In this document: piece by piece, positions 2 through 14,235 of the stretch
How the letters are laid out: every line of letters begins with the position of its first letter
Position numbering within the stretch: position 1 is the first letter of the stretch
NCBI GenBank assembly: GCA_963633785.1
Contig: CAVHAH010000001.1
Coordinates: 1 to 30,793 of the forward strand
Direction of reading: 5' to 3'
DNA from: a bacterium
GTDB lineage: Bacteria > Bacillota > Clostridia > Christensenellales > Aristaeellaceae
DNA length: 30,793 nucleotides
Position numbers and translations under genes: made by a program
Notes under the pieces: generated by a model
The model's database searches: none
The model's input: only the letters and a program-made list of their open reading frames with translations
Told to the model about the DNA's origin: nothing

Positions 2-2479
2 GTGCTCACGGCGAAACTGCGGCAGCCCGTGGACCGCACGGTTTATATGCTGGACGAAAACGGACAGCCCACCCTGCAGGATGCCGAGAAGAAGGAATGG
101 GCGCTTCGATTCGACTATGATTACGAATGGCTCTGGATCACGCAATCCGCTCAGGCGATGCACCTGAATGTCCGTGCGGGCGGCGATGTGAACATCGAAG
201 AAACCGACGGCGATATGGGTCTGGGCGTGATTACAGCCACGGGCGGCGTGCATCTGGAAGCGACCGACAACATCACGGACACCCGAACGGACGCACAGAC
301 CGAGCCGAATCTCACCGCAGGCGGCGATGCATCGCTGAATGCGAAGAACGGAACCGTCGGTTCGCCCGATGCGCGCATCATTACCGATGTTGACGGAACG
401 ATTATCGCAGATGCGAAGGGCGATATCAGCATCGGCGACATCCAAACGCTTGATTTGATTGCCCAAAGCAAGGAAGGACAGGTGAATGCCTCCGCAAAGG
501 AGAATCTGAATCTGAGCAACAGAAGCGGCGATTTGATTGTCGGCCCCATTCAGGCGGGCAAGGATGCCGCCGTTACCGCACAGGGAAGCATCGTTGCGGG
601 CGACCGACTGGGCGAGGATGCTCAGGTGAAGGCGAACAGCATTGTGCTGAATGCGAAGAACGGCGATATCGGCACACCGCAGGAAGCCTTCCGAGTGGAC
701 ACCGATTCCGAAAACGGCGGAACGCTCTCGGCAAACGGCAGCTATCTGAATATTCTCGAATTGACGGACAATCTCATTCTCAAGAAGATTACCGCTCAGG
801 GCGATGCCGTTATCACCGCCCCCGAAAGCATTCTCGACGGCAACGACACCCCGATTGATCAGGCGGCACAAGCGCAGAAGCAGGCGGACAACGCCAAAGC
901 GCAGGCCGAATCGGCGAAGGCGGATGCGTATGTCCGGCGTGAAGAGGCGAACATGGCGGATTCGGCGGCAGAGGAGATTCGCAATCGGCTTGATTTGCTG
1001 AATCAAAACCCGAAGGCCACCGAAGAACAGAAGGCATTGCTGCAGCAGCAGCTGAACGAAGCGGAGCAAAAGCGGGCGGAAGCCGAAGCAAACGCAAAAG
1101 CCGCCGAAGAAGAAGCACAGCGCAAACAGCAAGCCTATGAAGCGGCGCAGAAGAACGCCGATTCGGCAAAGCAGAATGCGCTTGACGGCGAAACCACCGT
1201 TTCCGCAGGCGGCAATCTCACGCTGAATGCCCTCGGCGATATCGGTTCGGACAATCACGGCCTGTCGCTCAAGGTGCAAGGCGAAGTGGATGCCAACACG
1301 CAAAACGACCTGCACCTCTCCGCCAAGGGCGATTTAACGCTCAAGGATGCCGTAACGGGCGGCGATATCACCCTGAATACGCTGGATGGCGATATCCGTT
1401 CAAACGGCACGGTGAAGGGCGATACGCTCGATGCCAATGCGATTTTCGGCGATGTTGATTTGAATACGCAGGTCGATTCCCTCTCGGCGAAGGGCGAAAA
1501 CGTCACGATTCACAACAACGGCGATGTCACCATCGGCCAAATCACCGCTCAGGACAAACTGCACCTGGATGTGAACGGCAATGTGAATGCCGATTCCGCC
1601 GTTAAGCCCAACATCATGGCGCAGGATGCCACCCTGAATGCCGATAAGAACATCGGCTCGAAGGACAATCCCGTGGATACCGTAATCGGCAATCTCCACG
1701 GCAGCGGCAAGAAAATCTACATCGAGAATCATTCCGAGAATCTGGATATCAACGATGTAAACGCCAAGACGCTGGATGTGAAAACGCAGGGCAACGTCAC
1801 GGGCCGTGATATCACCGTCAGGGACATCACCATTCACGCCAACGGCAATGTCGGCACCCGAACGGAACCGCTGACATTCAAGGCATCGGGGCGCGTGGAC
1901 ATCCGCGCGGGACTGCTGCTCAACTACCGCAATCTCTACCGTGCACCCGAACAGGGAACGCCGATTCACTGCCTGATGGTGCTGAAATTCGACCTCGGCG
2001 AGAATGCCCTGTATGTGCTTATCGGCATGGATGCCAACGGCAAACTCAACATCATGGGCATCTTCCTCGGAGAACGGGAAACGGACGAAGCCTTCTGGAC
2101 GGAGGTATTCACGATTCTCTCCCGAAATCCGAATGCCGAAGGCATCGAATGGATTTGCTTCAGAGACATCAACGGCCTGACGGAAGCGGCGCGGAAATTC
2201 TACGAAACGCCAATCAACCTTTGCGATTTGACCGACATGGAGGAAATCCCGAAAGCCGAACGCATTGCGCAGGTGCTTGAATCCTATGTATCCGACGCCC
2301 GCCCCGTGCTCGAAGCCATCGATTTGTTCCGCGGGGATTTCGCCGAAGGATTGGAAACTTTCGTGAATCTCGATGCCGAATGTGCCGAATTCCTGAAGGA
2401 ATACATCAAGAACGATGTCATCTGGAACGAAAGCACAAAAGCGGAACTGACTCCGCAGAGAATCGGAGAATCCGCTTAA
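2..2479 (+). CDS. 5'-truncated large surface/secreted protein with filamentous-haemagglutinin-like beta-helical repeats, a coiled-coil insert and a C-terminal IS256-transposase-like domain
   Basis: 825-aa frame open from the window edge. G/N/D/T/V-rich repeats recur (LNAKNGTVGS, LNAKNGDIGT, LNALGDIGS, LNADKNIGS, IHANGNVGT). A/Q/E/K-rich helical stretch at about 851-1190; composition changes after about 1960. Stop TAA 2477-2479. Confidence 0.75.
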   Translation: MLTAKLRQPVDRTVYMLDENGQPTLQDAEKKEWALRFDYDYEWLWITQSAQAMHLNVRAGGDVNIEETDGDMGLGVITATGGVHLEATDNITDTRTDAQTEPNLTAGGDASLNAKNGTVGSPDARIITDVDGTIIADAKGDISIGDIQTLDLIAQSKEGQVNASAKENLNLSNRSGDLIVGPIQAGKDAAVTAQGSIVAGDRLGEDAQVKANSIVLNAKNGDIGTPQEAFRVDTDSENGGTLSANGSYLNILELTDNLILKKITAQGDAVITAPESILDGNDTPIDQAAQAQKQADNAKAQAESAKADAYVRREEANMADSAAEEIRNRLDLLNQNPKATEEQKALLQQQLNEAEQKRAEAEANAKAAEEEAQRKQQAYEAAQKNADSAKQNALDGETTVSAGGNLTLNALGDIGSDNHGLSLKVQGEVDANTQNDLHLSAKGDLTLKDAVTGGDITLNTLDGDIRSNGTVKGDTLDANAIFGDVDLNTQVDSLSAKGENVTIHNNGDVTIGQITAQDKLHLDVNGNVNADSAVKPNIMAQDATLNADKNIGSKDNPVDTVIGNLHGSGKKIYIENHSENLDINDVNAKTLDVKTQGNVTGRDITVRDITIHANGNVGTRTEPLTFKASGRVDIRAGLLLNYRNLYRAPEQGTPIHCLMVLKFDLGENALYVLIGMDANGKLNIMGIFLGERETDEAFWTEVFTILSRNPNAEGIEWICFRDINGLTEAARKFYETPINLCDLTDMEEIPKAERIAQVLESYVSDARPVLEAIDLFRGDFAEGLETFVNLDAECAEFLKEYIKNDVIWNESTKAELTPQRIGESA

Positions 2480-2534: not shown

Positions 2535-5471
2535 TTACAGCGGCTGAATGGAATCGTACGTCAAACCGATAATGTTCATAACGTCCGAGAAATACCGATT
2601 CATATCGCTTTCGGAAAGATTCAGCGTGGAATCGTATTTCAGGAATTGCAAAAGCCTGGTCGGTCGGGTTTGCGCATAGCTGATTAGAATCTGCAATGCG
2701 CTGTTGTATTTGCTTTCGCTGAAATCCCAACGCTCGAAATGGTCGGGAAGAACGGTCATCAAAAGATTATACCGCTCTTGGAACATGCTCAGGATATTTT
2801 CGGTGGTCATATTGGTGGCGAGCTGTGTTCCGAAATACGTCAGGAATCGGTCTTTGAAGGTATCGTTTTTCATGGCTGCGATGAACAGCGTGTTGTCGGT
2901 GCGCTTGTTGTTGCCCACGCCGCCCGGCGCAAGCCAGCGGGCGATGGAATTCGTGTCCTGCAAAAACGCCCAGTCGATATCATACAGCACCCAGCGCCAT
3001 TTGCCGTCGGCGTTTGCGTTGCGATAGCGCTTCACGTTGCTCGGGTCGGTGTTTCCGGAGAAAATCTCGATGGCCATGTATTCAATGTAATTCTGAATGT
3101 CGATGTTTTCATCCAGCACCTGATACGCCTCATCGGTGTTCGGATCGTGGGTCGTGAGGTAATCGAGCAGTTCCGTGAAGCTCTCGTTTGAACCCTGCCG
3201 CACGATGTCGTTTTTCACAATCAGATCCAGCGAATCCTCCTGACCTTCCCAGCCTTCATGCTGACAAATCAGCGTGGGGCTGATTGCCTCGCGGATATTG
3301 TACTGCCCCCAGTATTCGCCGTTCAGGTAAACGATGCAAACCTCCGTTTCCTGATACAGAACGCTCGTGTCCTTCGCCAATGTAACCAAAACGGAATCGC
3401 GCATTCGGGTTTTGTTTGCGTCGTCGCTGGAATTGCGAATCAGAATCGCGTGCGCCGTGTCGTAATCACGGTTGGAGAAGATGTGCCCCCGAATCAGGGA
3501 ATCGCCGTATTCGCTGCGGGCAATCAGCTTGAAACACTGCTGCGGTTCGCTTCGGCAGGTTTGCCCCTGCTGCGCCATGCCCACTTCCTGCGAGGTAATC
3601 TGATTGCCGCCGCAATCATAGATTTCAACGTGGGCTTCCCGCTCCCATTCCTGATCGTAGTTCGCCACGCTGCCCGTTCCCGCAACCAGAATGCCCGATT
3701 CGTCGCTGAAAAGGTTGTCCGGATCGGACACGATGGAAACGGTATACACGCTGCCCGAACCGTTTTTCGCATCGAAGATATAGGTTTGCGTTTCCATATA
3801 GGAGGGCATACAGCCGTCCTTGTATGCGCGCGCCCGCAGAACCGTCTGTTCGCTGATTTGAATGGGCGAGGTGTACAGGGCAGACGATTCCGAAGGGTCG
3901 GTGTTGTCGGTGGTGTAGTAAATGCGGCAATCGCTCGGTGCGCTGATGGAAACGGTAATCACATCGCCCGTTGTGAACAGTCCGCCCGAAACGGAGAATT
4001 CAGGCGTTTGCGCACGCCCGAGATAGCTTTCCGAACGGTTTTCGCTCCCCGGCGTCATCGTTTCCAGATACAGACAATCCGAGGAATCGCCCAACCGCCC
4101 GTAGCTGATATCCCGATACTGTTGGGGCACATACACGCGGTCCACAATCGTTCCGTCCGATTGCGCCAGCACCACGGAATATTCGCCGCTTGCCGAAAGG
4201 TTGAAATCGGCCACATTGTAAGCGGAGGATGCGAGAAGCTCGGCATTCACTTCCGTTGAAGTATCGCTGCTTGCGAACACGCACATGTATTCGCCCGCCT
4301 GAATCACCGTTCCCGAAGGAAACTGCCATTTGCGGGGACGTGAGGCATTGTCGGAAAGCCCCCAGCCCGAAAGATCAACGGCGCTGTCGGAGGTATTCAC
4401 AATTTCAATCCAGTCCGCCGAAGAAGAGGAGCTGGCAACGATTTCGCTGATGTGAACGGAATAGAGCGTTTCCGCCGAAGCCACCGCATCCGCACCGTAA
4501 ACCGTGTTGGCGGCGTTCGGCGAGGGCGCAAGTGCGGTTGTCCAGCCGGATTCCGTTCGGGAATAGGCCTGATCCGCCTGCAATTCGGGAACGGTAACGC
4601 TTGAAATAACGGTTCCGTCGCTCTTCGTCAGATACAAACTCACGCCCGAGGAGAGCAATTTGAAATTCGCATGAATGTGCCCGTCTTCCACTTCGTCCAA
4701 TCCCGACATATGCACCGTAAGATATTCATCCGGCTGAAGGGTCACATCGGGAAACGCCCAGCGCTTCGGCTTTTGCTCCTGATTGGAAAGATACATTCCG
4801 GAGAGATTCACCGCTTCGTCCGACTTGTTGTGAATCTCGACATAATCGCTGATTTCGCCGTCTTCATCGGGAAAGAAGGTGCGGTTTTTCGTAACGACCT
4901 CCGTGATTTCCAAATCCCCCGACGATTCAACCGCCGATTGCGAGGAAATTGCTTCGGGCGTGTCCGTGATGCTGTTTTGAGCGTTCGGCGTGGCGGTATA
5001 GCTGAGCTGCCACGAGCCGTTTTCATCCAGCGCATAAACCTGATTGTCGCCCAAACCGGGCACCGTTACGCTGTCGATGGTGTTCCCGTTGGCATTCAGC
5101 AGGTAGATTGTCGAGCCGCCCGAGGAGAGCTTAAACGGCGCATGGTATCCGCCCTCTTTCGAACCGTCCGCCGTGATAACCAGAAACCCGCCCGCTTCAA
5201 TCGTGCAGTTCGGGAACACATAGGATTTCTTCGGTTCGGCGGCGCTCATCAGCGCATAACCGTAAAGACCGATGTCCGAATCCGAGGTATTCTCGATTTC
5301 AATCCAATCGGAATCGCCGACCTCCGAATCCGCCATCACTTCGCTGATGCGCAGTCCCGATGCAACGGCCGTTTGCGCATTGTTTTCCAACATCCACGCC
5401 GCCGCACAGGCCACCAACCCGATTATCGCCATTATGATTACCGTTTTCCACGGGAATCTCGATTTTTTCAT
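2535..5471 (-). CDS. CotH-family kinase with N-terminal signal/TM segment, three lamin-tail (LTD) domains and an Fn3-associated/chitobiase-like domain (paralog 2)
   Basis: LTD motifs (LRISEV..DWIEIEN, LEITEV..DYVEIHN, VHISEI..DWIEIVN); IYYTTDNTDP motif; CotH motifs VYLNGEYWGQY, GNTD, KWRWVLYDIDW. Start set to ATG 5471, which follows GGAGG. Confidence 0.85.
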   Translation of the reverse strand: MKKSRFPWKTVIIMAIIGLVACAAAWMLENNAQTAVASGLRISEVMADSEVGDSDWIEIENTSDSDIGLYGYALMSAAEPKKSYVFPNCTIEAGGFLVITADGSKEGGYHAPFKLSSGGSTIYLLNANGNTIDSVTVPGLGDNQVYALDENGSWQLSYTATPNAQNSITDTPEAISSQSAVESSGDLEITEVVTKNRTFFPDEDGEISDYVEIHNKSDEAVNLSGMYLSNQEQKPKRWAFPDVTLQPDEYLTVHMSGLDEVEDGHIHANFKLLSSGVSLYLTKSDGTVISSVTVPELQADQAYSRTESGWTTALAPSPNAANTVYGADAVASAETLYSVHISEIVASSSSSADWIEIVNTSDSAVDLSGWGLSDNASRPRKWQFPSGTVIQAGEYMCVFASSDTSTEVNAELLASSAYNVADFNLSASGEYSVVLAQSDGTIVDRVYVPQQYRDISYGRLGDSSDCLYLETMTPGSENRSESYLGRAQTPEFSVSGGLFTTGDVITVSISAPSDCRIYYTTDNTDPSESSALYTSPIQISEQTVLRARAYKDGCMPSYMETQTYIFDAKNGSGSVYTVSIVSDPDNLFSDESGILVAGTGSVANYDQEWEREAHVEIYDCGGNQITSQEVGMAQQGQTCRSEPQQCFKLIARSEYGDSLIRGHIFSNRDYDTAHAILIRNSSDDANKTRMRDSVLVTLAKDTSVLYQETEVCIVYLNGEYWGQYNIREAISPTLICQHEGWEGQEDSLDLIVKNDIVRQGSNESFTELLDYLTTHDPNTDEAYQVLDENIDIQNYIEYMAIEIFSGNTDPSNVKRYRNANADGKWRWVLYDIDWAFLQDTNSIARWLAPGGVGNNKRTDNTLFIAAMKNDTFKDRFLTYFGTQLATNMTTENILSMFQERYNLLMTVLPDHFERWDFSESKYNSALQILISYAQTRPTRLLQFLKYDSTLNLSESDMNRYFSDVMNIIGLTYDSIQPL

Positions 5472-5502
5472 GATTTGCCTCCGCATTCATTGCAATGACC
5501 TT

Positions 5503-5531
5503 ATTGTAGCGCAAAATGCTTGAATGAGCAA
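5503..5531 (-). promoter_or_regulatory. Putative sigmaA promoter of CotH paralog 2
   Basis: TTGCTC (5531-5526), 17 bp, TACAAT (5508-5503). Confidence 0.55.
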
Positions 5532-5545
5532 TCTCATTCAAGCAT
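5516..5545 (-). terminator. Intrinsic terminator after CotH paralog 1
   Basis: 13-bp perfect inverted repeat ATGCTTGAATGAG/CTCATTCAAGCAT followed by TTT on the minus strand. Confidence 0.7.
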
Positions 5546-5559
5546 CGTTTATTAAATGT

Positions 5560-8448
5560 TTATAAAGAGGGAATCTGATTGTAAGTCAGACCGACTGCCT
5601 CCATTGCGCCGCCGAAATACTTTTCCATATCGCTTTGGGAAAGATTCAGCGCCTGTGAATCCTTCGCGAATTGCAGCAATCGAGTCGGCCTGCTCTGCGC
5701 ATAATCCACCAGTTCGCTCACTTCTTTATTGTATTTCTTCTCGCTCACGCCCCAGCGCTCGAAGTGGTCGGGCAGAATGGTTGATAAAAGATCGTAGCGC
5801 TCCTTGAATCGGGCAACCACCTGTTCGCTCGACAGGTCATTCGCCAGGCGATTCCCGAAATACGTCAGGAAGCGATCGCGGAAGGTGTCGTTTTTCATGC
5901 AGGCGATAAAGAACGTGTTGTCCGCCCTCAATCCGTCGCCCTTGTTGCCCGCCGTGAGCCAGCGCTGGAACGAATTGGTGTCCACGCTGAATCCCCAGTC
6001 CAAATCATACAGAATCCAGCGCCATTTGCCGTCGGCATTCGGGTTGCGATAGCGCTTGATATTCAAGGTATCGGTGTTGCCGGTGTAAATCTGAAGGGTC
6101 ATGAATTCGATGTAGTTTTGAATGTCGATGGCGGAATCGATTCGCTCATAGGCCTCCTGCGTGTTCGGATTGTGATTCGCAAGATAGTCTGTCAAATCCA
6201 GATAGGTTTGATCCGAACCCTGCAAAACGTTCGCCGTGCCCGCAACCAGATCCAGCGCATCTTCATCGCCTTCCCAGCCCTCGTGCAGGCAAATCAATTC
6301 GGTATTCACCGCTTCCCGAAGGTTGTAGTGCCCCCAGTATTCGCCGTTCAGATAAACCACGCAAACCTCTGTTTCCTGATAGAGCACGCTCGTGTTCGAA
6401 GCAAGCGAAGTCAAAACGGAATCACGCATGCGGGTTTTGTTGATGTCGTCGCCCGAATTGCGCAGAAGGAACGCCTTGCAGGTGTCGTATTCACGGTTGG
6501 AAAACAGCTGTCCCGAAAACAGGGCGTCTCCGTATTCCCGCCGTGCAATCAGCTTGAATCCCTTCTGATTTTCGTTGCGCGTGGCGTTTCCCTGCAAGCG
6601 AACGGAACATTCCTGCGAAAGCAGGGAATTGCCCTCGCAATCGAAAACCTGCGCATTCGCCTCGTATTCCCATTCCTGATAATAGTTCGCCACACTGCCC
6701 GAACCTGCCACCAGAATGCCCTTTTCATCGCTGAAGAAATTGTCGGGATCGGATACCAGCGACACCGTATACACCGCTCCCGAACCGTTTTTCACGTCAA
6801 ACAGATAGCTCTGTGCGGTTGCGAACGAGGGCAGGAAATCATCTTGAAAAGCCCGCGCCCGCAAAACGGTCTGCGATGTAATGGTGATGGGGGAGGTGTA
6901 CAGCTGTGAAGACTGCGTGGGCAGGGTGTTGTCGGTGGTATAGTAAATGCGCGCGCCCGAATTCGCCGAAAGCGCAACCGTTATCGTATCGCCCGTTGTG
7001 AACAATCCGCCCGAAACCGAGAATTCGGGCGATTCGGCGCGCCCCGAATACGATTGCGAGATATTCTCCGCCTGCGGCGTCATGGTTTCCAGATACCGCC
7101 CGTCTGCGGAATTTCCCTGCCGACCGTAGCTGATATCCCGATACTGCTGCGCAATAAACAGCCGATCCGTGATTTCGCCGTCGGGCTGTGCGAGCACCAC
7201 GGAGTAACCGCCTTCGGCCGACAGGCAGAAGCCCGTTGAAAGCATCGAATCCGTTTCGCTTTCGCTTGCCAGCACGCACAGGTATTCACCTGCCCCGATG
7301 ACCGTTCCCGAAGGGAATTGCCATTTGCGGGGCCGAGCGGAATTGTCCGAAAGCCCCCAATCGGAGAGATCCACCGAAACGTCCGAGGCGTTTGCGATTT
7401 CAATCCAGTCCACGTTCGAAGAGTTGGTTGCGGAGATTTCGGAAATATAAACGTCGGGCAGAACCGCCTGCGATTCAGAGGAATCGGCGGTGTTTTCGCG
7501 TTGCGGCGTGGGCGCAAGCGTGCTCTTCCAGCCCGATTCGGTAAGCGAATACACCTGATCCGCCTGCATTTCGGGAACGGTCACCGCCGAAGCGATTTCG
7601 CCGCCTTCGTTCGTTAAAAACAACTGCGTGCCCGAGGCTTTCAATTTGAAATTCGCATGAATGTGATCGCCCTCTGTGCGATTCAGCCCCGATAAATGCA
7701 CGCACAGGTATTCATCCGCCGCAAGCTCTACCGACGGAAACGCCCACATCTTCGGGTTTTCACGCTCGTCCGACAGATACCACCCCGCCAGATTCACGCT
7801 TTCGCCGCTCGTGTTGTGAATCTCCGCATAATCATAGAATTCGCCGTTTTCATCCGGGAAATAGGTGCGGTTCTTGGGCGATACCTCCGTGATTTCCAAA
7901 TCCCCCGCAACCACGTCAATCTCCTGCGCGCGCAGTTCATCAACGGAAGCAATTCGGTTTTCTTCGTTCGGCGTGGCGATATAGCTGATTTGCCAAGCGC
8001 CGTCTTTGTCCCGAACGGCGGATTGACCGCTTGCCAATGCGGGAACGGCGGCGCAATCAATCGCCTCGCCCGAGGCATTCAGAAGATACAGCGTATCCTC
8101 GCCCGAAGAAATGCGAAACGGCGCATGAAAATCGCCCTGCGTGCCGTCGGCGGTGACCACCGTGAATCCGCCCGCTTCAAGCGTGTGATTTCCGAATACA
8201 AACGATTTTTGCGGATGATCGGCACTTGTAAGCGCATAACCGTACAGCGAAACGGCTTCGGAGGATGTGTTTTCGATTTCAATCCAATACGCATCCCCTT
8301 CGCCCGAATCCTGCGCAATCTCGCTGATGCGAAGCGGCGATGGCGAATCCTCCCGTGAACGGCTCTCCAGCAGCCACGCCCCCGCACAGGCCATCAGACC
8401 GATGATTGCAATCAAAGCAACCGTTATTCGCAGATTCTGTCTGTTCAT
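5560..8448 (-). CDS. CotH-family kinase with LTD domains (paralog 1)
   Basis: Same architecture as and colinear with 2535..5471 (e.g. KTRMRDSVL, VYLNGEYWGHY, NADGKWRWILYDLDW). Start set to ATG 8448 (MNRQNLR then a hydrophobic segment). Confidence 0.85.
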   Translation of the reverse strand: MNRQNLRITVALIAIIGLMACAGAWLLESRSREDSPSPLRISEIAQDSGEGDAYWIEIENTSSEAVSLYGYALTSADHPQKSFVFGNHTLEAGGFTVVTADGTQGDFHAPFRISSGEDTLYLLNASGEAIDCAAVPALASGQSAVRDKDGAWQISYIATPNEENRIASVDELRAQEIDVVAGDLEITEVSPKNRTYFPDENGEFYDYAEIHNTSGESVNLAGWYLSDERENPKMWAFPSVELAADEYLCVHLSGLNRTEGDHIHANFKLKASGTQLFLTNEGGEIASAVTVPEMQADQVYSLTESGWKSTLAPTPQRENTADSSESQAVLPDVYISEISATNSSNVDWIEIANASDVSVDLSDWGLSDNSARPRKWQFPSGTVIGAGEYLCVLASESETDSMLSTGFCLSAEGGYSVVLAQPDGEITDRLFIAQQYRDISYGRQGNSADGRYLETMTPQAENISQSYSGRAESPEFSVSGGLFTTGDTITVALSANSGARIYYTTDNTLPTQSSQLYTSPITITSQTVLRARAFQDDFLPSFATAQSYLFDVKNGSGAVYTVSLVSDPDNFFSDEKGILVAGSGSVANYYQEWEYEANAQVFDCEGNSLLSQECSVRLQGNATRNENQKGFKLIARREYGDALFSGQLFSNREYDTCKAFLLRNSGDDINKTRMRDSVLTSLASNTSVLYQETEVCVVYLNGEYWGHYNLREAVNTELICLHEGWEGDEDALDLVAGTANVLQGSDQTYLDLTDYLANHNPNTQEAYERIDSAIDIQNYIEFMTLQIYTGNTDTLNIKRYRNPNADGKWRWILYDLDWGFSVDTNSFQRWLTAGNKGDGLRADNTFFIACMKNDTFRDRFLTYFGNRLANDLSSEQVVARFKERYDLLSTILPDHFERWGVSEKKYNKEVSELVDYAQSRPTRLLQFAKDSQALNLSQSDMEKYFGGAMEAVGLTYNQIPSL

Positions 8449-8479
8449 TCCGCCGACCCCCGATAAATCATATATGAAT

Positions 8480-8508
8480 ATTGTATCGCAAAAATCCCGA
8501 GGACGCAA
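8480..8508 (-). promoter_or_regulatory. Putative sigmaA promoter of CotH paralog 1
   Basis: TTGCGT (8508-8503), 17 bp, TACAAT (8485-8480). Confidence 0.55.
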
Positions 8509-8547
8509 CCCGAAAGAAGCGTTTACAGAATTTCAACCTGCGCGCTG

Positions 8548-8576
8548 TTCGCAATAACGTTATTTTCGATTATAAT
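8548..8576 (+). promoter_or_regulatory. Putative sigmaA promoter of the alarmone synthetase operon
   Basis: TTCGCA, 17 bp, TATAAT (8571-8576). Confidence 0.55.
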
Positions 8577-8609
8577 AAGAATAATCACAATCAGGAGAGA
8601 AAAACGGCA

Positions 8610-9299
8610 ATGAAACATGATGAGATATCGCCCCTGAAGCACGCCTTGATGACCCGCCTGAATAACGGCGAAATCAAGAACTGGCTGAAAGAATACGCCA
8701 TGCCCTATAAGGAGCTGATGGCGTATTACCGCTGTGCAATTATGGAGGTCGAAACGAAATTCAATGTGCTCAACGAGGAGCTTTCCCTGCGTTACGACCG
8801 CAACCCGATTGAATCCGTGAAATCACGCCTGAAATCGCCCGAGAGCATCGTGGACAAAGCGGTTCGCAAGAATATACCGCTCACTGTGGAAGGCATCGAG
8901 CAGTATATGCACGATATTGCGGGCCTGCGGGTAATCTGTTCGTTCCCCGGCGACATTTACATGCTGGCGGATGCCCTCTTGCGTCAGGACGATGTGACCC
9001 TTCTGGAGCGCAAGGATTATATTCGCAATCCCAAACCCAACGGCTATCGCAGTTTGCATCTGATTATCGAAACGCCGATTTTCCTGCACAATCAAACCAG
9101 AAAAATGAAGGTGGAAGTGCAGCTGCGCACGATTTCGATGGACTGGTGGGCGAGCTTGGAGCATAAGATTCGCTACAAGAAGGATTTGGAAAACGATGCG
9201 CAGATTGCCAAAGAGCTGTTTGAATGCGCACAAATGGGCGCCGAGCTGGACAATCGCATGGAAGAAATCCACAAACGGGCCAACGCCGACGAAGAATAA
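8610..9299 (+). CDS. Small alarmone synthetase (GTP pyrophosphokinase, RelP/RelQ-like)
   Basis: Synthetase motifs SRLKSPESIVDK, DIAGLRVIC, KDYIRNPKPNGYRSLH, EVQLRTISMDWWASLEHKIRYK; AGGAG RBS before ATG 8610. Confidence 0.92.
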   Translation: MKHDEISPLKHALMTRLNNGEIKNWLKEYAMPYKELMAYYRCAIMEVETKFNVLNEELSLRYDRNPIESVKSRLKSPESIVDKAVRKNIPLTVEGIEQYMHDIAGLRVICSFPGDIYMLADALLRQDDVTLLERKDYIRNPKPNGYRSLHLIIETPIFLHNQTRKMKVEVQLRTISMDWWASLEHKIRYKKDLENDAQIAKELFECAQMGAELDNRMEEIHKRANADEE

Positions 9300-10209: not shown

Positions 10210-13200
10210 TCAGATTTCCAAAGTTCCCTCGAAGACCTGTTCCGCCGTTCCGTGAAGCGTTACGCCGCTGTCGGAATAGCGAACGGTGAGCGTTCCGCCG
10301 GGCACCTGAACGTCGATGTCCGTATCCCGACGGCACAAGCCGTTTTCAACCGCAGCAACCACTGCGGCGCAAGCGCCCGTTCCGCAGGCTTTGGTTTCAC
10401 CGCTGCCGCGCTCGAAACAGCGCATTCTCAGCGTGGTTGCGTTTACCGCGCGCACGAATTCGGTATTCACCCGTTCGGGGAAGATTTCGGCCGTTTCGAA
10501 TTTCGGCCCCAGCCGATCGAGCTTCAGCGTTTCAACGGAATCCGTGAATACCACGCAATGCGGATTGCCCATGGAAACGAGGTTGATGAAATACATCTGC
10601 CCGGCGATTTTCGCAGGATAGTGCATCGCGCGGTCGGCCTGAATGGTGCAGGGCAGGCTTGCGGGATTCAGATTCGGCTGTCCGATATCCACCGATACCG
10701 AGCTGACCCGACCGGACTGCGTGTAGAGCTGCAAATGGTGAATGCCGCTCGCCGTTTCGATGTTCATTTCCGTTTTCGCAACGATGCCCTTATCGTAGAG
10801 ATACTTGCCCACGCAGCGAATGCAGTTGCCCGCCATTCGCCCTTCGGAACCGTCACGGTTGTACATGCGCATTTTCGCATCCGCCACGGAGGAATTCTCA
10901 ATCAGGGCGATGCCGTCCGCACCCACGCCGTAATGGCTTCTGCACAGCTTCACGCACAGCGATTCGGGATATTCAATCGCATTGTCGCGGTTGTCAATCA
11001 GAATGTAATCGTTGCCGGTAGACTGCATCTTTGAGAATTTCAGGGTCTGACGTTCATGGCGCAGATGCGCAATGTCCACCAGTTCGGTGTTGAGCTGCGT
11101 GTAACGGCTGGCGATGATGTCCGCCAGTGCGTTTGCGGTATCCAGCGATGTCAGGCAGGCGATTCTGTGCAGCACCGCCAGGCGATGCAGGTGAATGTAA
11201 TCCTCCATCGTGGCATCCATAAGCGCACCCGTGTAGATGATATAGTGAATCACGCCGCTTTCAAGCAGATTCTGCGTGGCGTCGTAATCGTGAATGTCGG
11301 GAACGGTATTCACCGCAATGCCCATCGTTGCGAGCACCTGCGCCGTGCCGACCGTCGCATACAGCCGACAGCCCAAATCGTAGAACTTCCGTGCAATCGA
11401 AACGATTTCGGGGTAATCGTATTCATCCACGCTCAGCATAACGCCCGTTTCCTGTCCCGCTTCGGGCGTGCGGAAGCCGGCGCTCACCAAGCCCTTGAAC
11501 AGCGCTTCGGATTTATCCCGACCCAGACCGAGCACTTCGCCCGTGGACTTCATTTCGGGGCTCAAATAGCTGTTTGCGTCCAGCAGCTTTTCAAACGAGA
11601 ATACCGGCACCTTTACCGCACAATACGGCGGCGCCTGATGCAGACCCGTTCCGCAGCCGATTTCACGAAGCGATTCGCCCAGCATCACCCGCGCGGCAAT
11701 GTCCACCATCGCCACGCCCGATACCTTTGAAATATACGGAATCGTGCGCGATGCACGGGGGTTGACCTCGATAACATACAATTCGCCGTCGTAAATCAGA
11801 TACTGAATGTTCACGAGACCCTTCGTGCCCAAAGCCAACGCCAGCTGTGTGGAGCTCTTCACGATGTTCTGAAGCATTCTGTCGGTGATGTTGTACGGCG
11901 GATACACCGCAATGGAGTCGCCCGAATGCACGCCCGCGCGCTCGATATGCTCCATTACGCCGGGAATCAGAACATCCGTGCCGTCGGAAATCACGTCCAC
12001 TTCCAGTTCCGTTCCGGACATATACTTGTCCACCAGAACGGGATTCTCGATGCCGCCTGCGAGAATGCGATTCATGTAGGTTTCAACATCTTTCTTCGCA
12101 TGGGCAATCACCATGTTCTGACCGCCGATAACATAGCTCGGACGCAGCAGCACGGGATAACCCAGCGTTTGCGCCGCATTCAGGGCTTCTTCCATCGTGC
12201 GAACGCCCATGCCCTTCGGACGGCGAATCGAGAATTTCTCCAGCAGCGCATCGAAGCGTTCACGGTCTTCGGCAATGTCGATGCCCTCTGCGGAGGTGCC
12301 CAGAATCGGAACATTCGCGCGGCTCAGCGCACCCGTTAAGCGAATGGCGGTCTGTCCGCCGAACGCAACCACAACGCCGATGGGCTTTTCAACCTCCAGA
12401 ATCCGCATCACGTCTTCATCCGTGAGCGGCTCGAAATACAGCCGGTCGGCGGTATCGTAGTCGGTGGAAACGGTTTCGGGGTTGTTGTTGATGATGACCA
12501 CATCGTATCCCAGCCGCTTGAGCGTCCATACGCAATGCACGGAGGAATAGTCGAATTCAATGCCCTGACCGATGCGAATCGGGCCCGAACCCAGTACGAC
12601 CACCACGGGTTTGCCCGAACGGGGGAACGCACGGGATTCACATTCGGAATCAAAGCTCGAATAGAAGTAAGGCGTTTCGGCGGCGAATTCCGCACCGCAG
12701 GTATCCACCATTTTGAATACGCTGTGGCATTCGGGCAGCGATTCCGCTCCCGAAAGACGCTTGATTGCGGCGTCGGGATAGCCCAGCTTCTTGCCTTTCA
12801 GATAATTCTCCTCGGTAAGACCGTTTGCGATTTCGGCTTCGTAATCGGCGAGCTTTTGCAATTTGGCGATGAACCACTTGTCGATTTTCGTGATTGCGTG
12901 AATTTCATCCACCGTCACGCCGCTCTTCAGCGCTTCAAACACGGTAAACAGCCTGTGGTCGTCTGCGATTTTCAGCCGTTCACGAATGGGCGCGGAGCTG
13001 TTCGGCGTGCGGTTGAGCGTATCCATGCCGATTTCCGCACCTCGAACGGCTTTCATCAAAGCCATTTCGAATGTGGGCGCAATGGACATCACTTCGCCCG
13101 TCGCCTTCATCTGCGTGCCCAAACTGCGGCTGGCTCCGGCGAACTTGTCAAACGGCCATTTCGGGAACTTGACCACCACATAGTCGAGCGTCGGCTCAAA

Positions 13201-14235
13201 GCAGGCGCAGGTCTTGCCCGTGATTTCGTTTTTGATTTCATCCAGCGTATAGCCCAAAGCGATGCGGGTGGTGACCTTTGCAATCGGATAGCCCGTGGCC
13301 TTGCTCGCCAATGCCGACGAACGGGACACGCGCGGATTCACCTCGATAACCGCATATTCGAAGCTGTCGGGATTCAGGGCGAACTGGCAGTTGCAGCCGC
13401 CGACAATGCCCAGCGCCGAAATGATATTCAGCGATGCGCTTCGAAGCATCTGATATTCCTTGTCCGAAAGCGTGAGTGCGGGCGCAACCACAATGGAATC
13501 GCCCGTGTGAATGCCCACGGGATCGAGATTCTCCATCGAGCAAACGGCAATCACGTTGCCCACGGAATCGCGCATCACCTCGAATTCGATTTCCTTCCAG
13601 CCCGCCACGGACTTTTCAATCAGAACCTGCGTAATCGGCGAAGCGTCCAGACCGGTCTGCGCAATCAGGCGCAATTCCTCTTCATCCGCCGCAGAACCGC
13701 CGCCTGCGCCGCCCAATGTGAATGCGGGGCGAACGATTACGGGGTAACCGATTTTCGAAGCGATTTCCAGCGCCTGATTCACGGTGTTGGCGATGCCCGA
13801 GGGAATCACGGGTTCGCCGATTTCGGTCATGGCGTCTTTGAACAGCTGTCTGTCCTCCGCCTTGTCAATCGCCTCGGCATTTGCGCCGATCAGGCGAACG
13901 TTGTGTTCCTGCAAAAAGCCGTCTTTGGAAAGCTGCATCGCAAGCGTCAGACCCGTCTGACCGCCAAGACCCGCCAGAAGGCTGTCCGGCTTTTCGTGCA
14001 GAATAATGCGCTTGAGCGTTTCAACGGTCAGGGGCTCCAAATAAATTTCATCCGCAAGCGCCTTGTCGGTCATGATGGTTGCGGGGTTTGAATTCACCAA
14101 AACCACATTCACGCCCGCATCCTTCAGAATTCGGCACGCCTGCGCACCGGCATAATCGAATTCGGCGGCCTGACCGATTACGATAGGACCGGAACCGATC
14201 ATCAAAACCTTGTGAATGGACGGATTCAGCGGCAT
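10210..14235 (-). CDS. carB: Carbamoyl-phosphate synthase large subunit fused to a C-terminal diaminopimelate-epimerase (DapF) domain
   Basis: GSGPIVIGQAAEFDY, duplicated ATP-grasp domains (EVNPRVSRSS, EVNPRASRT), MGS-like domain; last ~277 aa are DapF-like (FSKMQSTGNDY, GVGADG, SMGNPH, FERGSGETKACGTGA). Confidence 0.95.
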   Translation of the reverse strand: MPLNPSIHKVLMIGSGPIVIGQAAEFDYAGAQACRILKDAGVNVVLVNSNPATIMTDKALADEIYLEPLTVETLKRIILHEKPDSLLAGLGGQTGLTLAMQLSKDGFLQEHNVRLIGANAEAIDKAEDRQLFKDAMTEIGEPVIPSGIANTVNQALEIASKIGYPVIVRPAFTLGGAGGGSAADEEELRLIAQTGLDASPITQVLIEKSVAGWKEIEFEVMRDSVGNVIAVCSMENLDPVGIHTGDSIVVAPALTLSDKEYQMLRSASLNIISALGIVGGCNCQFALNPDSFEYAVIEVNPRVSRSSALASKATGYPIAKVTTRIALGYTLDEIKNEITGKTCACFEPTLDYVVVKFPKWPFDKFAGASRSLGTQMKATGEVMSIAPTFEMALMKAVRGAEIGMDTLNRTPNSSAPIRERLKIADDHRLFTVFEALKSGVTVDEIHAITKIDKWFIAKLQKLADYEAEIANGLTEENYLKGKKLGYPDAAIKRLSGAESLPECHSVFKMVDTCGAEFAAETPYFYSSFDSECESRAFPRSGKPVVVVLGSGPIRIGQGIEFDYSSVHCVWTLKRLGYDVVIINNNPETVSTDYDTADRLYFEPLTDEDVMRILEVEKPIGVVVAFGGQTAIRLTGALSRANVPILGTSAEGIDIAEDRERFDALLEKFSIRRPKGMGVRTMEEALNAAQTLGYPVLLRPSYVIGGQNMVIAHAKKDVETYMNRILAGGIENPVLVDKYMSGTELEVDVISDGTDVLIPGVMEHIERAGVHSGDSIAVYPPYNITDRMLQNIVKSSTQLALALGTKGLVNIQYLIYDGELYVIEVNPRASRTIPYISKVSGVAMVDIAARVMLGESLREIGCGTGLHQAPPYCAVKVPVFSFEKLLDANSYLSPEMKSTGEVLGLGRDKSEALFKGLVSAGFRTPEAGQETGVMLSVDEYDYPEIVSIARKFYDLGCRLYATVGTAQVLATMGIAVNTVPDIHDYDATQNLLESGVIHYIIYTGALMDATMEDYIHLHRLAVLHRIACLTSLDTANALADIIASRYTQLNTELVDIAHLRHERQTLKFSKMQSTGNDYILIDNRDNAIEYPESLCVKLCRSHYGVGADGIALIENSSVADAKMRMYNRDGSEGRMAGNCIRCVGKYLYDKGIVAKTEMNIETASGIHHLQLYTQSGRVSSVSVDIGQPNLNPASLPCTIQADRAMHYPAKIAGQMYFINLVSMGNPHCVVFTDSVETLKLDRLGPKFETAEIFPERVNTEFVRAVNATTLRMRCFERGSGETKACGTGACAAVVAAVENGLCRRDTDIDVQVPGGTLTVRYSDSGVTLHGTAEQVFEGTLEI

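Follow-up and report, generated by a model that had tools for sequence, protein, structure and literature searches.

The locus studied here raises the question of why a giant repeat protein, likely exported, should end in a segment that looks like part of a transposase. We analysed a stretch of 30,793 nucleotides (hereafter the window), corresponding to positions 1–30,793 of contig CAVHAH010000001.1 in the Aristaeellaceae assembly GCA_963633785.1 (also labelled G000 contig C1). An open reading frame (ORF) at 2–2479 on its forward strand encodes the last 825 amino acids (aa) of the giant protein and is open at the contig edge, which truncates the gene. In its translation the repeats give way, without stop codon or frameshift, to a C-terminal tail of 172 aa (1961–2476). 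An earlier note had described this in-frame transition and read the tail as an IS256/Mutator transposase core exapted to serve a large exported protein as its C-terminal module, possibly a polymorphic-toxin nuclease tip or an anchoring or processing domain. Our analysis suggests that the tail is a domesticated pseudo-transposase, a net acidic IS256 catalytic domain that has lost its catalytic residues.

That the tail is homologous to IS256 transposases is beyond chance. It matches the Pfam family Transposase_mut (PF00872) at an E-value of 8.8e-5 and 22 bits, for a cut-off of 21, and the NCBIfam family IS256 (NF033543) at 27.8 bits, below the cut-off of 150. When the tail was compared with PDB by phmmer, the ISCth4 transposase (6xg8) was the sole match at E<=10 (E 3.8e-5), and profile-profile comparison with an IS256 transposase gave a probability of 98.3% (E 2.3e-14). 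The matches start at the catalytic domain: the N-terminal dimerisation, DNA-binding and helix-turn-helix (HTH) domains are absent, as had been noticed for the DNA-binding region, and the stalk lies upstream instead.

Structure prediction agrees with this assignment. The best of five AlphaFold2 (AF2) models, obtained with a 10-sequence alignment, has a mean predicted local distance difference test score (pLDDT) of 88.7 and a predicted template modelling score (pTM) of 0.86. Its five best Foldseek matches are ISCth4 chains (E 5e-6), and VIA ranked 6xg8_A first (Z 11.8, root mean square deviation 3.5, 150 aligned residues), followed by integrase cores at Z 11.1. The fold is predicted to be RNase H-like, with the last helices packing back on the sheet. 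In the VIA alignment, residues 1–156 of the model correspond to ISCth4 168–389, and about 66 residues are skipped; the insertion domain of ISCth4 comprises 65 residues, 261–325 (PMC7780238). The tail likely corresponds to the complete IS256 catalytic domain minus its insertion domain, a mapping that is more secure in the N-terminal than in the C-terminal half; the similarity, thought at first to be limited to the first 90 tail residues, extends to the end of the protein. In a sliding-profile comparison, for which motifs were picked after the alignment had been viewed, the last motif of the tail (aromatic-x6-Trp, 2402–2425) found its best of 397 placements where IS256 transposases have their last conserved Trp pair (z 5.0), in keeping with the VIA end point; the penultimate helix found its best of 400 placements at the matching upstream helix (z 4.1), and for the third-from-last helix the catalytic Glu helix came second among 397 placements.

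Three observations pull the other way: the remaining four AF2 models scored pLDDT 68.6–74.6, a global profile alignment set the helices of tails like the window's (the short form, as defined below) on the insertion domain, and the helical part of the tail alone gave no significant match to any transposase segment. An origin of the short-form helices from the insertion domain was considered and is disfavoured by the VIA alignment together with the sliding-profile placements.

The fusion recurs in other proteins. A phmmer search of 1.84 billion representatives with the tail yielded 17 matches. In ten of them this stalk end leads into a C-terminal copy of the domain, the proteins reaching 5,884, 7,055 and 7,912 aa; the other seven are ordinary transposases or fragments. 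In total, the searches gave 21 IS256-type tails, all of them C-terminal on one and the same repeat scaffold and joined to it at the same junction, in open frames of up to 10,594 aa. All 21 are intact and in frame, with lengths of 154–237 aa. Twelve belong to the short form, which lacks the insertion domain, eight to a long form that keeps it, and one is divergent. Short forms are only ~26–30% identical to the window tail; all eight long forms score above the Pfam cut-off, and the long form matches the transposase with 99.9% probability over 221 columns. In the short-form set, the window protein is represented by P0002 (2,355 aa), which matches contig C20 at 96.6% and the window ORF at 98.9%. 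Collinear matches of this kind assign the remainder of this giant gene to contigs C20 and C104, with P0007 and P0011 spanning C104, C20 and C1 in order, and a full length of ~8,500 aa is inferred.

Surveys by profile outline how far the tail and its scaffold extend. The short-form tail profile matched three of 401 genomes of the family, this genome included. At class level it matched one of 399 genomes, with none among the 398 other class genomes (two unscored), and at order level (401 genomes) it matched 13 other genomes, in frames of 98–425 aa that are transposase-sized or smaller. At E<=1e-13 this profile missed the long form, which surfaced only via the stalk profile. The stalk-end profile itself was found in 21 of 401 family genomes, in frames of up to 13,007 aa, and in one of 301 genomes of the phylum (not in the 300 others). 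A scan of genome contigs gave one locus, a 7,602-codon frame in an uncultured Oscillospiraceae; scans of metagenome contigs found no relative of the tail and a plasmid collection no match. A word-index protein search with the single tail scored none of 394 candidates, and its profile version returned only two known members. The 27 stalk matches of the family survey, less two duplicates and one lacking the stalk end, leave 24 C-termini, of which 12 are IS256-derived (four short, eight long) and 12 carry a beta-sandwich.

The next question is whether such a tail could still be an enzyme. The 21 tails were aligned with 13 transposases, retained from 16 collected after three near-duplicates were dropped. 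The first catalytic Asp, D175 in ISCth4, is retained in none of the tails and in all 13 transposases; D175A abolishes ISCth4 activity, which makes this residue essential (PMC7780238). In the window it falls at 1976–1984, where aligners place Met, Leu or a two-residue gap and never Asp. The second Asp (D241) is kept in seven tails versus 13/13 transposases, the window protein having Arg there (2162–2164), and the third position (E348) is acidic in four tails versus 13/13, among them the window protein, whose Asp at 2321–2323 likely falls there. The His of the CxxH motif, described for the C/DxxH form as important for catalysis (PMC7780238), is present in 0/21 tails and 13/13 transposases; the earlier note was right that it had been lost. 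The two Asp residues which that note had offered as catalytic candidates fall elsewhere: Asp 1991–1993 aligns with His/Lys three to five residues after the first catalytic Asp, and Asp 2165–2167 lies one residue past the second, whose place the Arg occupies. A Cys at 2222–2224 was tried as the Cys of CxxH and set aside, since profile comparisons do not align it to that position. Net charge separates the two sets completely, all tails being acidic (-4 to -41) and all transposase catalytic parts basic (+1 to +8). Residues conserved in the tails are mostly the Gly, aromatic and aliphatic residues of the core, common to transposases, and most basic residues conserved in transposases are gone. As judged from these alignments, the tails are catalytically dead enzymes.

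A tip that is active as a nuclease or polymorphic toxin, or a module that binds DNA outside the cell, would fit the RNase H-like predicted fold, the three acidic positions that are near-invariant in the short form and the Asp that the window protein has at the third of the catalytic positions. The near-invariant acids of the short form align, however, with non-catalytic positions, and the losses at the first Asp and the CxxH His in 21/21 tails, the Arg that replaces the second Asp in the window protein, the uniformly acidic charge and the disappearance of most conserved basic residues all argue against it. No small gene follows the tail gene directly, as had been noted, the next gene being convergent and of the LTD-CotH type (lamin-tail and CotH domains), and by inspection no small downstream gene is conserved in 13 loci. 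Furthermore, only two unrelated folds occupy the terminal slot of the scaffold. We regard this explanation as very improbable, and the toxin-tip suggestion is not supported.

Could the tail instead be debris? Nei-Gojobori ratios of nonsynonymous to synonymous substitution (dN/dS) of IS256-type tails are 0.31–0.60 in seven non-independent pairs, with bootstrap upper limits of 0.49–0.84, so that all seven stay below 1, and the adjacent stalk gives 0.24–0.63. A neutral, decaying IS256 remnant or an assembly chimera could account for the patchy distribution, as the tail query was not found in ten other genomes of the genus (68–97% complete), for the moderate dN/dS, and for the frame change seen in this genome within the 5' part of the gene. 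Set against this are the 21 intact in-frame tails, of which the short forms are only ~26–30% identical to that of the window protein, the ratios below 1 in every pair and the same junction in independent assemblies. No pair resembling terminal inverted repeats surrounds the tail domain within 1700–2800, in agreement with the earlier note; repeat pairs there measure only 10–17 nt, with the hairpin described below as the longest good one. This assembly, 80% complete, yielded no intact IS256 gene. A relic or chimera is hardly credible on this evidence. Three findings nevertheless count against our reading of the tail: two beta-sandwich pairs are more constrained (dN/dS 0.15 and 0.18), dS is near saturation in the three pairs involving the window gene, and the frame change, near 2436 on C104 between frames of 832 and 823 aa, is either real or an assembly error, so that this genome's copy may not be made in full.

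The tails were inherited with their scaffold. In a tree, the 21 tails lie on one side of a branch and the 13 transposases on the other (support 95/99), a split weakened by long branches and a narrow outgroup. The stalk tree needs no more than the minimum of three changes for four tail types, and its groups match those of the tail tree. Recurrence at the same position, purifying selection and co-inheritance with the host gene, the features of a domesticated transposase that we tested, are thus all found in the sequence comparisons, in line with the exaptation proposed at the outset. Because catalytic residues are lost, the charge is acidic, selection is purifying and the tail tree tracks the scaffold tree, we read the tail as a domesticated pseudo-transposase and not as a nuclease toxin tip.

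The junction offers a glimpse of how the domain may have been acquired. Between stalk and tail lies a short Pro-rich linker (1940–1960), likely the fusion junction, with Pro in 12/12 short-form tails. The linker begins with Arg/Gln-Pro, in register with the Arg-Pro at the opening of the transposase catalytic domain, and the preceding transposase motif is better retained in long-form tails. The terminal Trp motif is present in the short form and absent from the long form, whereas the insertion domain shows the opposite pattern; from this reciprocal retention, both forms would derive from a fuller domain. Since the junction is shared at the Arg-Pro, a single capture of the IS256 domain followed by reciprocal losses is the simpler reading, and two captures are possible. 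We propose that an ancestral giant gene received an IS256 insertion close to its 3' end, and that the element's sequence, from the first residues of the catalytic domain on, became part of the reading frame and ceased to be catalytic; one lineage would then have deleted the insertion domain and another trimmed the C-terminus.

The other half of the surveyed C-termini carry a beta-sandwich in two related versions, unrelated to the IS256 tail and with no transposase match in the nine scanned. Its model has a pLDDT of 89.6; it has no Pfam match and no Foldseek match at E<=0.001, and its Atlas neighbours are unnamed. One of the versions is rich in Cys and has Gly-aromatic-Thr as its end, at a place where autoproteolytic members carry His. 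ZU5, FIIND and GAIN domains are among the best structural matches (Z 4.5–5.9), level with glycosidase domains, and kinship to them is a lead only. ZU5-like domains are described in large bacterial surface proteins (PMC3482391).

What the tail does has to be weighed together with the rest of the giant protein and its neighbours. A basic-plus-hydrophobic N-terminus, judged by hydropathy, is present in 16/16 5' ends, and the protein is likely exported through Sec. A tetratricopeptide repeat (TPR) gene lies directly upstream in 14/16 5' regions, with every tail type, and directly downstream of the tail in G1051 and G827. For the window's gene, the signal-like start lies on C104, as do a TPR gene upstream of it and a regulator that its sequence marks as LuxR-type; a regulator-like gene also precedes the TPR gene at some other giant loci. 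More generally, one or two exported TPR genes stand directly before giant signal-peptide genes with open frames of 6,765–13,007 aa, apparently an uncharacterised system. This genome has a second giant paralogue on C120 with two TPR genes upstream and a likely beta-sandwich tail on C137, the link being inferred from similarity to G823 C5. The two 5' regions lacking an upstream TPR gene belong to IS256-type loci (G860 C4 and G021 C5), in genomes that each have a second, TPR-linked locus. The G021 C5 locus (3690–8765 plus the next frame) has a stop after ~1,690 codons and the most divergent and shortest IS256-type tail (154 aa), and may be decaying.

This arrangement could mean that the exported TPR protein encoded alongside recognises the tail as its specific signal and chaperones or tethers the giant. 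TPR proteins bind helical C-terminal parts, and the close linkage of the two genes, upstream in most loci and downstream in two, would suit such a role. A single TPR subfamily (35–44% identical) nevertheless accompanies short IS256, long IS256 and beta-sandwich tails alike, and the very loci that lack an upstream TPR gene bear IS256-type tails, which makes this idea distinctly improbable. The same linkage bears on a further alternative, in which the N-terminal part of the rod would be what keeps it in place, through the TPR partner for instance, and the dead tail would be a distal ligand-binding tip, one of several interchangeable adhesin heads. Because TPR genes occur with all tail types, anchoring could do without the tail; the slot takes alternative modules, four genomes (G000, G823, G860 and G021) have two paralogues with different tails, and RTX adhesins too are built with a variable C-terminal head. 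Only two unrelated folds were found in the slot, however, each inherited with a stalk clade and with no sign of frequent swapping, and no conserved surface patch is common to short and long forms. We consider a distal tip rather unlikely.

We slightly favour the view that the dead IS256 catalytic domain, on a likely exported and likely beta-helical giant, serves the rod as a non-enzymatic end-piece, closing it off and helping to hold it at the cell envelope. As Sec export proceeds N-terminus first, the tail domain would be the last part of the giant protein to emerge, and surface proteins of monoderms usually carry their anchor at the C-terminal position. Neither LPxTG nor a C-terminal membrane segment was found in the window protein, as the earlier note had observed. 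Without these or an S-layer homology (SLH) anchor, the tail would fold as a compact acidic globule, end the repeats and dock non-covalently, and the beta-sandwich would occupy the equivalent terminal slot in sister proteins. A possible anchoring role lies near this reading; for a processing role, no evidence was found in this analysis. Two considerations count against the docking part of the proposal. An acidic surface is ill-suited to a negatively charged wall, so docking would need a partner or cations, and few surface residues are common to short and long forms, so a plain cap fits better than a specific dock. More broadly, we tentatively suggest, without leaning on it, that these loci may form an undescribed monoderm giant-adhesin system, an exported TPR protein with a rod of 7,000–13,000 residues, in which a captured dead DDE domain would serve as an extracellular retention or binding module interchangeable with a ZU5-like sandwich.

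The remainder of the window protein and its surroundings complete the picture. Upstream of the tail, Gly/Asn/Asp/Thr-rich repeats, probably a beta-helical stalk (2–850), are followed by an Ala/Gln/Glu/Lys-rich insert, likely a coiled coil (851–1189; weak TolA-like match in P0002, E 0.006), and by the last repeats with the conserved stalk end motif (1190–1939, its final five residues at 1925–1939), which alignment shows to be common to the scaffold family irrespective of tail type. Downstream, a 17-bp hairpin and then a short T-rich run (2486–2522), the longest repeat around the tail domain with about -29 kcal/mol for the first 70 nt, likely form a terminator between convergent genes; a normal terminator had been reported there, and a consensus terminator scan did not flag it. 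Two tandem paralogous exported proteins follow on the reverse strand (2535–5486 and 5560–8508), with three lamin-tail domains and Fn3-associated and CotH kinase domains. Farther on, at 10210–14235 of the same strand, a carbamoyl-phosphate synthase large subunit is fused in frame with diaminopimelate epimerase (1,341 aa).

How does this protein compare with known systems? With the IS256 transposase (ISCth4 TnpA, 6xg8), the tail shares the RNase H-like domain from the opening Arg-Pro to the last Trp, and the long-form tails share the helical insertion domain that the window's short form lacks. An IS256 element also has N-terminal dimerisation, DNA-binding and HTH domains, a DDE triad, CxxH, inverted repeats and a basic charge; the tail has none of these, is acidic and terminates a giant signal-peptide protein, to which it is fused. 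Polymorphic toxins resemble the scaffold in their signal peptide, long repeat stalk and variable C-terminal domain (PMC3482391), but the scaffold has neither a catalytic tip nor a conserved immunity gene, and its few tail types are each inherited with the stalk. By these sequence features, the protein is neither an IS256 element nor a polymorphic toxin, and a Transposase_mut match on such giant proteins need not indicate an IS element.

The LktA-type filamentous proteins are also giant signal-peptide proteins. Their tandem repeats (LktA_tand_53, NF012206) match the N-terminal 4,184 aa of a relative in G1165 weakly (E 3.4e-12, 46.3 bits for a cut-off of 50), with no match in P0002 or in the C-terminal 4,000 aa of the relative. 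The scaffold differs from them in scoring below the curated cut-off on the half scanned, in its pairing with TPR genes and in its C-terminal pseudo-transposase or ZU5-like sandwich, and toxin activity is not implied. A survey of giant genes lists Clostridia giants with other repeats, and the word 'transposase' is absent from its main text (10.1101/2023.11.21.568195). No earlier description of a fusion between an IS256 tail and a giant protein was found in the literature searched, a scope that excluded most subscription journals and preprint supplements. Our survey outlines an apparently uncharacterised TPR-plus-giant-protein surface system, and a dead DDE domain is kept in half of the giant-protein family members surveyed.

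A further comparison is with other domesticated transposon proteins. The plant proteins FAR1/FHY3 and MUSTANG are domesticated transposases derived from Mutator-like elements (MULEs); TnpB has reportedly been domesticated as TldR, and IS110 is said to have given rise to Nop5. Among the cases reviewed in PMC8987985 are Cas1, from a casposase, and Cas9, from an IS200/605 nuclease. Like these proteins, the tail is fixed in a host gene and under purifying selection, and some of them are likewise nuclease-dead. They act on nucleic acids inside the cell, whereas the tail sits on a likely exported protein and has lost its basic, DNA-binding character. The coexistence of forms with and without the insertion domain furthermore provides a natural test of whether that domain can be removed from the RNase H fold. 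If the broader reading of these loci as a giant-adhesin system is true, a transposase fold would have been domesticated for an extracellular job independent of nucleic acids, natural excision of the insertion domain included. Since the transposase domestications in the literature searched stay with nucleic acids in the cell, a dead, acidic DDE domain on a likely exported protein would widen what transposon debris can become.

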